A stretch of 64,000 nt of DNA from a phage, in the sequence record PZ445554.1, one strand, 5' to 3'. Shown here in pieces: positions 46,116 to 49,753 of the stretch. The translations under genes were made by a program, and so were the position numbers. Below the pieces are notes generated by a model. The model did not search any database. It was not told where the DNA came from and saw only the letters and a list, made by a program, of their open reading frames with translations. Every line of letters starts with the position of its first letter. Position 1 is the first letter of the stretch.

Positions 46116-46586
46116 TTAATCATGTTTCCACACCCCATCGGTATTTGACCAAAGCCGCTGATTATCTGATCCTCGCCACAGCTTTTTAGTCGGAAGATTT
46201 TTCTCATACTTCCCATCAATAATAACATCAACATATTTAAGCATTTCTAGTTGTTTAATATCTTCAAACTTATATCCTGTCCACAACCAAATGCTTTTAT
46301 TGGGATAAAGATTTTTTACTGTTTGAACGATGCAATGAATAACATCTCGGTTATCAGGATAGAGAGGGTCTCCTCCAGTTATAGTTAATCCTTCTATATA
46401 ATCATTATTCAAACATTCAATTAATTGTTCTAGTGTTTCACCAGTGAATGGAATACCATTTCTAGCATTCCATGTTGATTTATTATAACACCCTTCACAT
46501 TTATGCAAACAACCTGTAACGAAAAGAACGACCCTGCAACCAGGGCCATTCACAAAATCACAAGGATAAAATCTATCATAATTCAT
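46116..46586 (-). CDS. nrdG: Anaerobic ribonucleotide reductase activating protein NrdG (radical SAM)
   Basis: ORF track 156 aa; CxxxCxxC cluster GCLHKCEGC; overlaps nrdD stop. Confidence 0.9.
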   Translation of the reverse strand: MNYDRFYPCDFVNGPGCRVVLFVTGCLHKCEGCYNKSTWNARNGIPFTGETLEQLIECLNNDYIEGLTITGGDPLYPDNRDVIHCIVQTVKNLYPNKSIWLWTGYKFEDIKQLEMLKYVDVIIDGKYEKNLPTKKLWRGSDNQRLWSNTDGVWKHD

Positions 46587-48400
46587 TGATGCTTAACCCT
46601 ATGCATGATTTCTTTATTTTTACCGAGATTAAATCCGCGTTCGTTAGGATTTCCCAAATAACCACATGTTCTTCTTATTGTGTTCATCTTTTTAGGATCA
46701 GTTTCTCCACAAATAGAACAAACAAATCCGTTTTCAGTAGGAGTCATTTCATGGGTACTTCCGCATGTAAAACATTTATCTACCGGCATGTTAACACCAA
46801 AATAATCTAAATGTTGTGCAGCATAATCCCATACGGCCTCAAGACCCTTTAAGTTATTTTTCATATCAGGAAGTTCAACATAAGAAATGTGACCACCTGT
46901 CGCAATGAAATGATATGGCGCTTCACGAGAAATCTTTTCAAACGGAGTAATATTTTCTTCTACTGAGACATGGAAACTGTTAGTGTACCAGCCTTTATCG
47001 GTAACATCTTTTACGCTTCCATATTTTTCTGTATCGAGTTTACAGAAGCGATAACAAAGGTTTTCAGCAGGAGTCGAATATAAACTAAAAGCAAATCCGG
47101 TTCTTTCAGTCCACTGTTTAAGATGAGCATTCATTTTAGTTAAAATTTCTCGTCCAATATCACGACCGACAAGAATATTCAATTCGTGAATACCAATGTA
47201 TCCTAAAGACACTGAACTTCTACCGTTTTTAAATAACTCAATTATGTCGTCATCAGGTTTAAGACGAACCCCAAATGCACCTTCTTGGTAAAGAATAGGA
47301 GCAACAGTAGCTTTAACTCCTTTTAAGGAACTAATTCTACACATCAAAGCTTCAAAACATAAATCCATTCGTTCATTGAATAATTCAACAAATTTCTGTT
47401 CATTGAACTGTGTTCCAATATAAGAATCTAACGCGATGCGAGGAAGATTCAATGTTACAACACCAAGATTATTACGTCCATCAAGAATTTCATTGCCAGT
47501 CGAATCTTTCCATACGCTCAAGAAACTACGGCAACCCATTGGAGAAACAGGAACAGATGAACCAGTGATAGCTTTATTATTCTTAGCTGAAATAATATCA
47601 GGATACATTCTTTTGCTTGCACACTCTAGAGCAAGCTGCTTAATATCATAGTTCGGATCGTCTTTATAAAGATTAACACCTTCTTCAACGAACATAACAA
47701 GCTTAGGGAAAATAGGAGTTATCCCATCACGACCAAGACCTTTAATACGATTTTTCAGAATTGCTTTCTGAATCATTCGTTCAGTCCAGTCAGTTCCCGT
47801 ACCAAATGTAATTGTTACAAAAGGAGTCTGTCCGTTTGAACTAAAGAGAGTATTTACTTCATATTCATAAGCTTGGAATGCATCGTATACGTCTTTTTCT
47901 GTTTTAGATTGAGCATAATTCAACGCATCAGCGATTTGCCATTTTTCTGCATCCTCAATATGTTTTGCATAGGTGCGTTTAACATAAGGAGAAAGTACTT
48001 TATCTACATTCGCAAAAGTCGTTCCGCCGTATTGGTGAGAAGCAACCTGTGCAGTAATTTGTGCCATAATTGCAGTAGCAACGCCAATTGATTTAGGAGT
48101 TTCAATCTGTGCATTACCAAGCTTAAATCCGTTCTCAAGCATTCCTTTTAAATCTACTAAACAGCAATTAGTAAATGGAAGAGCAGGGGAATAATCAATA
48201 TCATGGAAATGAATAATTCCGCTTTCATGCGCTTTCATAATAAAAGACGGGACCATATTTTTGGCAATGTGTTTAGACACAATACCAGCCATAAGGTCCC
48301 GTTGAGTTGGAAAAACACGAGAATCTTTATTAGCATTCTCGTTTAAAAGGTCTTTATTAGTTTTATGAATCAATCCTTCAATTTCTTTTTCAATTGTCAT
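46583..48400 (-). CDS. nrdD: Anaerobic ribonucleotide reductase NrdD, uninterrupted (605 aa)
   Basis: ORF track 605 aa; C-terminal glycyl-radical motif RRTCGYLG and zinc ribbon CFTCGS...CSICG. Confidence 0.9.
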   Translation of the reverse strand: MTIEKEIEGLIHKTNKDLLNENANKDSRVFPTQRDLMAGIVSKHIAKNMVPSFIMKAHESGIIHFHDIDYSPALPFTNCCLVDLKGMLENGFKLGNAQIETPKSIGVATAIMAQITAQVASHQYGGTTFANVDKVLSPYVKRTYAKHIEDAEKWQIADALNYAQSKTEKDVYDAFQAYEYEVNTLFSSNGQTPFVTITFGTGTDWTERMIQKAILKNRIKGLGRDGITPIFPKLVMFVEEGVNLYKDDPNYDIKQLALECASKRMYPDIISAKNNKAITGSSVPVSPMGCRSFLSVWKDSTGNEILDGRNNLGVVTLNLPRIALDSYIGTQFNEQKFVELFNERMDLCFEALMCRISSLKGVKATVAPILYQEGAFGVRLKPDDDIIELFKNGRSSVSLGYIGIHELNILVGRDIGREILTKMNAHLKQWTERTGFAFSLYSTPAENLCYRFCKLDTEKYGSVKDVTDKGWYTNSFHVSVEENITPFEKISREAPYHFIATGGHISYVELPDMKNNLKGLEAVWDYAAQHLDYFGVNMPVDKCFTCGSTHEMTPTENGFVCSICGETDPKKMNTIRRTCGYLGNPNERGFNLGKNKEIMHRVKHQ

Positions 48401-48870
48401 TTTAAACTCTTTCTAAGCTGCTTCTTAAATGAAGCTATTAACTGTGTTTTGGTGTCAGATTCATTATATTCAAATCCTCTTTGAAGCATCTCGGCCATCA
48501 TTTCCTCTTTTCCTAAACGAGAAAATTCCTTTGATTTATCTCCAACAAAGTTAGGGTGAATATTATTTTGGGTGTAATCGGATTTTAAATAAGTAAGTAA
48601 ATTTTCTAACCATTCAAGATAATCAACACCTTGTCCCTTTAAGCCAGAACGATTAAATTTGTGCTTCATTTGACCTTCTGCGGCATTGCAGAGATTACAA
48701 AGCAATCCACGTACCTTTCCTGCTTTTGGTCCATTTAATTCATGGTCATGATCAAGATGATTAGCTTGAACATCAGGATTTAGTTCTCGTTGGCAAATTA
48801 AGCATTTACCGTTTTGTGCATTATAAAATTTCTGTTTTTCTTCTTTGTATAATTTGCCAGTCAATAACAT
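48397..48870 (-). CDS. 49: Endonuclease VII gp49 (Holliday junction resolvase)
   Basis: ORF track 157 aa, same length as T4 gp49; Cys-rich zinc-binding N-terminus, His-rich core. Confidence 0.85.
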   Translation of the reverse strand: MLLTGKLYKEEKQKFYNAQNGKCLICQRELNPDVQANHLDHDHELNGPKAGKVRGLLCNLCNAAEGQMKHKFNRSGLKGQGVDYLEWLENLLTYLKSDYTQNNIHPNFVGDKSKEFSRLGKEEMMAEMLQRGFEYNESDTKTQLIASFKKQLRKSLK

Positions 48871-48912
48871 AATAAAACCCTTACCTTAAATAGATAAGGG
48901 TATTTATTATTT

Positions 48913-49089
48913 TTAAGTATTGTAAAACATTCGATGCAATCGTTTATACTGTCGAATCATCTTTTTAGTAGGACGAGAATAGGTTCCTACGCAAGTGGTC
49001 ATATGAGGGTCCGTAGAATGTCCTTTAATAAAAAGTTTCCAAACCTTACCGCCATTTAACTTTTCAGTATAAACCAATTCGGTTTTCAT
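48913..49089 (-). CDS. Small protein (58 aa) whose last 15 codons duplicate the C-terminus of the upstream pin-like gene
   Basis: ATG at 49087-49089 (rev); MKTELVYTEKLNGGKVWKLFIKGHSTDPHMTTCVGTYSRPTKKMIRQYKRLHRMFYNT. Confidence 0.45.
   Translation of the reverse strand: MKTELVYTEKLNGGKVWKLFIKGHSTDPHMTTCVGTYSRPTKKMIRQYKRLHRMFYNT
48915..48960 (-). repeat. Direct repeat copy 1 (about 46 bp), 3-prime gene-end module
   Basis: aagtattgtaaaacattcgatgcaatcgtttatactgtcgaatcat, about 87 percent identical to copy at 49132-49177. Confidence 0.7.
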
Positions 49090-49129
49090 TAAAATGCCTT
49101 GTCAGAAAAAGAATTTTGAGTTTTTTTTT

Positions 49130-49615
49130 TCAAGTATTATAAAACATTTGATGCAATCGCTTATATTGCCGAATCATTTGGTCAGAAAAAGAATTTTGAG
49201 TTTCAAGCCATTCAATATATTCTGCCGCAGCTTGCATCAGGTTACCTTCATAATCATCAATATCTTTTTTCAATGCCACTTTAGCTAATGCATATGAAAT
49301 ACGTTCACCTTGAAAAGCGGCTTTAGGCTTCTGAACATCTTGGCTAGTTCTCTCTACAACTTCCTCGATTTCACCATTTTCAACGGATTCAGTATTCCAC
49401 AAACACCAATACGTAATTGGCTTATCATAGATGTTAATAATCTTTCCGTCGGAAAGTTCAATTTCAATAATTCCAGTGTCAGGCTCTATATCATCTTCAC
49501 ATTCTTTTGCAAGTTCACGAACTTTAAAGACAGTACCTGCACTAAGTTCCGGCCAGTAATTACATAGCCCTGTATCAACACGATTAATTCTAAACCACTT
49601 ATCTACTGTAATCAT
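49130..49615 (-). CDS. Hypothetical protein (161 aa); size and position correspond to T4 pin (tentative)
   Basis: ORF track 49130..49633 (TTG); ATG at 49615 gives 161 aa. Confidence 0.55.
   Translation of the reverse strand: MITVDKWFRINRVDTGLCNYWPELSAGTVFKVRELAKECEDDIEPDTGIIEIELSDGKIINIYDKPITYWCLWNTESVENGEIEEVVERTSQDVQKPKAAFQGERISYALAKVALKKDIDDYEGNLMQAAAEYIEWLETQNSFSDQMIRQYKRLHQMFYNT
49132..49177 (-). repeat. Direct repeat copy 2 (3-prime end of pin-like gene)
   Basis: aagtattataaaacatttgatgcaatcgcttatattgccgaatcat; flanking gtcagaaaaagaattttgagttt also occurs twice (49101-49123, 49181-49203). Confidence 0.7.
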
Positions 49616-49753
49616 GTCCCATCTCCATATCAATTAAGTCATTTATCGTTGGTTCATTATATACTGTTTCTTCATCAGTGTAAACCGGTTCTTCCGGCTC
49701 TGGCTCTACAGTTTCCCATCTAGCCGCCCACCAAGGTTTTATAGCGTAATCCA
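49598..49753 (-). CDS. Small acidic protein (51 aa), not in ORF track
   Basis: MDYAIKPWWAARWETVEPEPEEPVYTDEE; overlaps neighbours at both ends. Confidence 0.35.

Follow-up and report, generated by a model that had tools for sequence, protein, structure and literature searches.

Two neighbouring genes in the 64,000-nucleotide (nt) stretch of phage DNA analysed here (record PZ445554.1; hereafter the window) end in nearly the same 15 codons, and a 23-bp element stands twice beside them. Which of the two genes owned this end, and how did the other come to carry it? The genes are pin (49130-49615), predicted to encode the Lon protease inhibitor PinA (161 aa), and ORF58 (48913-49089), an open reading frame (ORF) for a 58-aa protein of the DUF7279 family. 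All genes and repeats of the window given below lie on the minus strand, where the order is nrdC ... 49.2, 49.1, pin, ORF58, gene 49 (endonuclease VII) and nrdD. We propose, with a probability of about three in four, that two rearrangements, one after the other, in the pin/DUF7279/gene 49 interval of T-even phages left the duplicated gene end behind.

A repeat search found the 23-nt element GTCAGAAAAAGAATTTTGAGTTT as an exact direct repeat at 49101-49123 and 49181-49203, the positions given by an earlier sequence-only reading of this DNA. It has just these two matches in the window even when 3 mismatches are allowed, and was absent from 100 shuffles. The second repeat is 57 nt long and 86% identical (48904-48960 and 49121-49177). 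Its coding part, 15 codons plus the stop codon at 48913-48960 and 49130-49177, agrees at 42 of 48 nt (87.5%), a match for which about 1e-8 chance pairs are expected in the window. The identity of ~87% and the peptides, MIRQYKRLHQMFYNT at the end of pin and MIRQYKRLHRMFYNT at the end of ORF58, are thus as first reported; the repeat itself stood, and only the ranges of the two tails had to be corrected, to 49133-49177 and 48916-48960, each having taken in one base of the stop codon. Repeat-to-repeat spacing is 80 bp for the 23-mers and 217 bp for the tails. Chance similarity or a sequencing or assembly artefact has the A/T-rich composition of the region in its favour and nothing more, and it is refuted by the shuffles, by the expected number of chance pairs and by the presence of the same arrangement in more than 100 independently sequenced phage genomes, which therefore cannot be an assembly artefact.

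The interval 48700-49700 matched 701 phage records, the best at 98.7% identity, and the closely matching ones belong to Tequatrovirus (T4-like). The larger gene, listed in the program-made ORF list as a 167-aa ORF with a TTG start, is really the 161-aa pin with its ATG at 49615. Pfam PF10465 (Inhibitor_I24) matches its product with an E value of 7e-46 and 155.9 bits (gathering cutoff 27), and the alignment pairs Pin residues 4-140 with profile positions 2-134 of 136, leaving the tail outside. The protein shows 99% identity with annotated Pin proteins and, within the domain, ~90% with T4 Pin, and its gene sits at the same genomic position as T4 pin; judged by these matches, it is PinA, the predicted inhibitor of the host Lon protease. 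ORF58 matches Pfam PF23945 (E 3e-17, 62.7 bits, gathering cutoff 24.5) with its residues 7-56 on positions 1-53 of 53, so that the tail is included, and PHROGs family phrog_3272 with E 3e-34. Pin residues 146-161 also match phrog_3272, at positions 43-58 (E 1e-3), and no Pin family matches there. In the AlphaFold model of ORF58 (mean predicted local distance difference test score, pLDDT, 82) three beta strands are followed by one helix, residues 42-56, and the 15 shared residues are ORF58 44-58, almost entirely within that predicted helix.

ORF58 homologues were found by tblastn in 358 phage records, whose DUF7279 genes carry the motif RPTK(K/R)-(M/L)IR-x-(Y/F)KR-x-HR-x-F(Y). A word-indexed protein search gave 10 matches, and the tail motif I/L-R-x-x-K-R-x-H/N-R-x-F varies little or not at all across 10 homologues. 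Among 1.84 billion representative proteins, a profile search returned only 9 matches, all of them short T4-like ORFs or weak repeats. As to function, Pfam and PHROGs offer only DUF7279/phrog_3272, for which none is annotated, and NCBIfam gave no match; a sequence search of the PDB with DUF7279 found nothing, and Foldseek with the ORF58 model against the PDB gave no match better than E = 0.27.

Other genera indicate which gene had the tail first. The DUF7279 gene adjoins gene 49, just upstream of it, in most loci read, including those of Tequatrovirus, Gaprivervirus, Dhakavirus and Mosigvirus, and in several genera its start codon overlaps the pin stop. The tail motif is kept in DUF7279 of Gaprivervirus RZ and VR20 (...KKMIRQFKRLHRSFY...), Dhakavirus JS98 and Mosigvirus LH01 (...KRMIRQYKRFHRDFYNVY). 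In Gelderlandvirus S16, DUF7279 ends ...RLIRRYKRINRLFNF and follows a 49.1 homologue, with no PinA gene adjacent. Pin in the other genera read ends RFADKAF, RFSDEAF or EYLERRLS directly before the stop, and the tail is absent. Because DUF7279 keeps the tail across genera and Pin there ends without it, the tail is native to DUF7279 and secondary in Pin, which reverses the direction that the sequence-only reading had implied. The tailed DUF7279 gene is the older and a widely conserved one, present in five Tevenvirinae genera, and T4 and T6 have lost it.

The 58-aa ORF had itself been suspected to be an insertion, a view that does not survive these comparisons. A mobile or foreign element that entered an originally 161-aa pin and captured its C-terminus, leaving the 23-mer and the tail as target-site-like duplications, would accord with the long pin of the reference phage T4, which has no ORF58, and with the position of ORF58 exactly between 23-mer and tail in the short-pin alleles described below. 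However, tailed ORF58 homologues stand at the locus in the genera read even where pin ends differently or is absent, and the tail lies inside the DUF7279 profile and outside the PinA profile. Searches of Pfam, PHROGs and NCBIfam found no endonuclease, integrase or transposase domain in ORF58, only the match to its own family, and a paralogue of DUF7279, which a Mosigvirus-like contig has upstream of pin, bears the same tail motif (...RQLRKAKRSHRNFYREY). We consider an insertion largely refuted and very improbable.

Within Tequatrovirus the interval exists in four coexisting alleles, which were defined from a sample taken at even intervals along the BLAST ranking and from 23 Tequatrovirus loci read directly besides the window; the record counts given here are rough extrapolations from that sample and from identity bands in INPHARED BLAST tables, and an anchor-pattern search of IMG/VR gave 4 loci. 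The first allele, short pin plus ORF58 (920 bp; NBG2, EP01 and F25; ~60-70 records), has a 148-aa pin ending TCTGAC CGA GCA TTT TAATG, with the stop overlapping the ORF58 start; across the short-pin alleles read, the codon after GAC is AGG or CGA. This is the layout seen in other genera. The second, fused pin only (783 bp; T4, T6 and Sf21; ~245 records), has a 161-aa pin in which TCTGAC C(G/A)A is followed by ATGATT and the rest of the ORF58 tail, and it has no ORF58. The third, to which the window belongs together with RB32, RB33, U115 and SG1 (995-1001 bp; ~110-120 records), consists of the fused pin with its stop, an A-run, a second 23-mer, a leader a(a/g)g(g/a)catttta and an intact ORF58. 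The fourth, short pin only (751 bp; ime09 and KAW1E185; ~70 records), has a 148-aa pin and neither ORF58 nor tail, and its junction TTTTAAT|ACTTGA corresponds to a deletion between TTTTAAT and TTTTACAAT. A tail-less Pin is thus found in about a quarter (~135) of the Tequatrovirus records, ~70 of which have neither tail nor ORF58.

The lengths of these alleles differ by the spacing of the repeats. In the window the interval measures 1001 bp (995-999 in the rest of its class), which is 217 bp more than the T4/T6 type and 76-80 bp more than short pin plus ORF58; the 217-bp unit of this direct-repeat polymorphism is matched exactly and the 80-bp 23-mer unit within A-run variation (76-80 bp). The suggestion of a recombination scar, made from the letters of this one genome, is borne out in this sense, the repeats marking the junctions at which alleles were rearranged. 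Compared with short pin plus ORF58, the fused allele lacks exactly 137 bp, namely the last 8 nt of pin and ORF58 codons 1-43, and remains in frame. All Pin tails read differ from the NBG2 ORF58 tail at 2-3 of 48 nt, as against 6-7 of 48 from the ORF58 tail of the window.

These comparisons suggest the following history. The starting state was a short pin (148 aa, ending SFSD(R/K)AF before the stop), the stop overlapping, as TAATG, the start of a 58-aa DUF7279 gene with the C-terminal helix ...KKMIRQYKRLHRMFYNT; this layout is ancestral, because it matches the outgroups. Comparison of the alleles shows that a 137-bp in-frame deletion then joined pin codon 146 to DUF7279 codon 44 and produced the 161-aa Pin of T4 and T6. 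Since the Pin tails lie so close to the NBG2 ORF58 tail, the fused allele probably arose from an NBG2-like short-pin allele. T4 Pin is therefore a chimera, Pin(1-146)::DUF7279(44-58), that carries the last 15 residues of a lost neighbour. In the second step, which we infer for the window allele, a fused allele would have recombined out of register with an unfused one, the crossover falling in A-rich sequence after the pin stop (ACTTGAAA...) on one side and just before the 23-mer of the unfused partner (GCTTGAAACTC...) on the other. Both ACTTGAAA, which runs from the tail end through the stop into the As behind it, and GCTTGAAACTC, which directly precedes the 23-mer in pin, contain CTTGAAA, and out-of-register recombination at CTTGAAA followed by slippage in the A-run would be the simplest origin of the joint in the window. 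The product would be a fused pin, an A-run, the last 23+11 nt of the short pin as leader and ribosome-binding region, and an intact DUF7279 gene; a fused left half and an unfused right half therefore account for two copies of the 23-mer and two of the tail.

Read in this light from pin towards gene 49, each segment of the window can be assigned a source. The first 23-mer copy (R1, 49181-49203) belongs to the original coding sequence of pin (codons ...ETQNSFSD), immediately ahead of the fusion point, and occurs once in every Tequatrovirus allele class sampled. By alignment of the allele classes, the junction codon CAA at 49178-49180 (Gln146; CGA in T4) still derives from pin, and the tail taken from ORF58 begins with the next codon, so that Pin consists of native residues 1-146 and 15 further residues that come from DUF7279. 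The copy of the tail that ends pin (49130-49177, 15 codons MIRQYKRLHQMFYNT plus TGA) is 2 of 48 nt from the NBG2 ORF58 tail and 6 of 48 from the native ORF58 tail of the window. A length-polymorphic run of ten As (49121-49130), the probable recombination joint, takes in the final base of the pin stop codon and reaches three bases into the second 23-mer copy (R2, 49101-49123). R2 would be a relic of the short pin 3' end that is now non-coding leader of ORF58; the same sequence ends pin in short-pin alleles, directly upstream of ORF58. The following aaggcatttta (49090-49100) would be the relic of the last codons and stop of the short pin (K-A-F-stop), and its AAGG forms a Shine-Dalgarno-like motif 7 nt before the ORF58 ATG, so that R2 and this 11-nt leader preserve the translation-initiation context of ORF58. 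The native ORF58 tail (MIRQYKRLHRMFYNT plus TAA, 48913-48960) lies almost wholly inside the predicted C-terminal helix.

The run of ten As is the longest joint run among the ten duplicated-allele sequences read, the others having 5-7 nt, and such a homopolymer is likely a hotspot for replication slippage and sequencing error. We also considered it as a frameshift or slippage element and rejected this: the first A of the run is the third base of the pin TGA, any slippage would leave that stop in place, and ORF58 begins at a start codon of its own.

All ten fused-plus-ORF58 genomes read, the window included, have one junction design. R2 is always AAAATTC with the leader A(A/G)G(G/A)CA, as in F25, and R1 varies (AAAATTC, AAATTTC or ACACAAAA); the A-run is 5, 6 (six phages) or 7 nt long in eight other phages of this class and 10 nt in the window. 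ORF58 is at least 99% identical in 111 records, and the short-pin alleles are more diverse (90-95% band, 62 records). A young allele spread by homologous exchange would fit this pattern, and SG1, in which the duplicated junction goes with an EP01-type ORF58 body, is an example of such exchange. The repeats would in turn be substrates for further deletion, recombination between the 23-mers giving short pin plus ORF58 and recombination between the tails giving the T4 type.

This last property allows the events to be read in another order, in which the duplicated allele is the older one in Tequatrovirus and both the T4 type (by a 217-bp tail-tail deletion) and the F25 type (by an ~80-bp 23-mer deletion) derive from it, the tail still coming from DUF7279. 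The length differences fit both repeat spacings, F25 has AAAATTC, the AGGGCA leader and a near-identical ORF58 in common with the duplicated alleles, and the tail of T6 and Sf21 (T4-type) is identical to the pin tail of several duplicated alleles. Against this, three events rather than two must be assumed from an outgroup-like state, a chimeric tail with the ORF58-type CGA codon was seen in none of the T4-type alleles read, ORF58 of the duplicated allele is nearly invariant where the short-pin alleles are diverse, and short-pin alleles of the NBG2/EP01 type have a different codon after the 23-mer (CGA) and cannot derive from the duplicated allele. We regard this order as unlikely, though by no means negligible.

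Several observations weigh against the two-step history that we prefer, fusion followed by out-of-register recombination. Within Tequatrovirus the order of events could be another, the duplicated allele being the older. The ends of the 137-bp fusion deletion share no microhomology. A crossover at the 7-nt CTTGAAA predicts a joint of three As, and the observed mode is six, so that either slippage followed or the join was less regular than such a crossover. The allele counts are extrapolated from evenly spaced BLAST rows rather than from a full census. Substitutions in the Pin tails are 4 non-synonymous to 1 synonymous, compared with 0 to 3 in ORF58 tails read as DNA, numbers too few to separate the two (Fisher p = 0.14), and one ORF58 cluster has a non-synonymous change, N57D.

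The same kind of joining appears to have happened a second time. A 6-kb Mosigvirus-type metagenomic contig (Logan SRR20302901) encodes a 141-aa Pin ending EYLERR|FHRDFYNVY; compared with LH01, this single contig has lost the DNA from one CGTTT pentamer to another, a deletion at microhomology that leaves of the downstream DUF7279 gene only the last 9 codons, fused to pin. On its sequence this would be an independent repeat of the event proposed for T4.

Further rearrangements of pin and DUF7279 were seen at these loci. Mosigvirus-like contigs, the SRR20302901 contig among them (SRR20302901 locus 1329-1926; proteins P0046 and P0047), have a second DUF7279 paralogue immediately upstream of pin, and in P0046 (191 aa) this paralogue and the N-terminus of Pin form one continuous reading frame. 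The PinA domain of Dhakavirus and Gaprivervirus comes in separate pieces whose order seems to be permuted (loci JS98 429-904, VR20 1063-1505 and RZ 1359-1532): a 57-aa ORF corresponds to I24 profile positions 88-136, the C-terminal part, and is the only piece in RZ, the next ORF of JS98 (100 aa) corresponds to positions 3-74, the N-terminal part, and an 89-aa ORF of VR20 has a weak FeoA-like match only. Within Tequatrovirus, pin has a short polymorphic cassette at 49250-49300 (Pin residues ~111-120), reading K(V/S)ALKKDIDDYEGN in the window and ime09 and ...KLAAQENNDGYEGN in T4, RB32 and NBG2. It assorts independently of the C-terminal allele class, which points to fine-scale mosaic recombination within pin. 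In phage MLP2, ORF58 (locus 708-884) has lost 2 nt (GGAACCTTCTCG vs GGAACCTATTCTCG), and the annotation gives it 40 aa; either the gene is a pseudogene or the sequence is in error.

Does the tail do anything in Pin? The sequence-only reading had offered a shared C-terminal peptide module as one explanation, and taken literally this is right, both proteins ending in the same helix sequence. The tail could then be a functional unit that can be moved between proteins, such as a helix that docks on Lon or on a partner of both, selected in both proteins and making the duplication adaptive. It is open and full length in 17 of 17 pin copies read (10 duplicated, 7 T4-type), it lies almost wholly in a predicted helix, pin and DUF7279 are adjacent with overlapping stop and start codons in several genera, and pin was fused to the tail independently in the Mosigvirus-like contig. 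On the other side stand the tail-less Pin of ~135 Tequatrovirus records and of all other genera sampled, the ~70 records with neither ORF58 nor tail, and the frameshifted ORF58 of MLP2. The invariant Arg53 of DUF7279 is Gln in all Pin tails read, which also vary at other conserved or invariant positions (M44K, R46Q and H52N), where ORF58 tails read as DNA differ only synonymously. The Pin model (mean pLDDT 59) falls below 50 across residues 140-161 and is too poor to show how the tail packs, and a PDB sequence search with Pin gave no match and hence no PinA structure. Because tail-less Pin is common and all Pin tails sampled have lost the invariant Arg, a shared function is somewhat disfavoured, and we think an adaptive peptide doubtful. 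It is equally speculative that the 15-residue DUF7279 helix might be a transferable unit, that Pin and DUF7279 might act jointly on host proteolysis and that the graft, made twice independently, might offset the loss of DUF7279; if so, biochemistry on the 161-aa T4 PinA describes a chimera that differs from the ancestral 148-aa inhibitor.

Nothing indicates a function of the repeats themselves. No promoter-like or terminator-like site was found within 49101-49203 or 48913-48960, and the repeat search found no inverted repeats in the region; the only hairpin is a conserved terminator-like stem-loop (48877-48901) directly upstream of the gene 49 coding sequence (48397-48870), which serves as right-hand anchor and has an identical context across all allele classes and genera. 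We also considered the repeats as a regulatory cassette of the promoter-early stem-loop (PeSL) kind and rejected this, neither repeat having a promoter or stem-loop inside.

The sequence between ORF58 and gene 49 (48871-48912) starts right after the tail stop codon with the hairpin leader AATAAATACCCTTATCT(A/T)..., common to all alleles and genera, which we take to be the known late-promoter region of gene 49 with its hairpin that sequesters the ribosome-binding site. The T-run ahead of the gene 49 ATG differs by 1-2 nt among phages. Beyond gene 49, nrdD (46583-48400) is one unbroken 605-aa ORF. The T4 annotation has nrdD in two pieces, joined across the I-TevII group I intron, and the phage of the window therefore lacks the nrdD intron.

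What is new for the T4-type Pin is that residues 147-161 lie outside the family domain and, by the comparisons above, derive from the neighbouring DUF7279 gene. T4 PinA binds and inhibits E. coli Lon protease (Hilliard et al., 1998, as cited in PMC8835725), and it is the textbook phage Lon inhibitor and a reagent in Lon biochemistry. For users of T4 PinA as a model Lon inhibitor the practical point is that it is not representative of its family, its last 15 residues being a graft from the gene next door, and the common natural 148-aa Pin is an obvious truncation for mapping the Lon-binding surface. The RB32 GenBank record calls ORF078c "similar to ... pin", so the resemblance was noticed earlier, apparently without being explained. 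A literature search, with the original pin paper (PMC211243) outside its reach, found no discussion of the pin C-terminus, no explanation of the resemblance and nothing on DUF7279.

Set against known systems, the locus holds no new type of genetic element or mechanism. The pin gene is the same gene at the same position as that of T4 PinA (PF10465, MEROPS I24), with nothing different in kind, and ORF58 is an ordinary full-length member of DUF7279 (PF23945; phrog_3272), a small Tevenvirinae protein (RB32 ORF078c, RB69 ORF087c-like); in this allele its gene follows a pin 3' relic and its start no longer overlaps the stop of a live pin. In hyperplastic regions of T4-type phages, modular shuffling mediated by PeSL has been described (Arbiol et al., 2010, PMC2839356; Comeau et al., 2014, PMC4122927). 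The present locus is similar in that a variable stretch of small non-essential ORFs, from nrdC to gene 49, gains and loses genes among close relatives via short repeats. Unlike PeSL cassettes, however, the repeats here are coding gene ends without a sigma-70-like promoter or hairpin inside, and one outcome of the exchange is a chimeric protein. There is likeness also to in-frame deletion fusion and to direct-repeat duplication/deletion polymorphism, in which adjacent ORFs are joined, short homologies flank the change and sizes differ by approximately the repeat unit. The locus thus illustrates how T-even phages build chimeric proteins and how short homologies let them acquire or shed small ORFs, and, within the general illegitimate and unequal recombination of phages, it is a specific and well-resolved instance, with four alleles still segregating and a second fusion in another genus.

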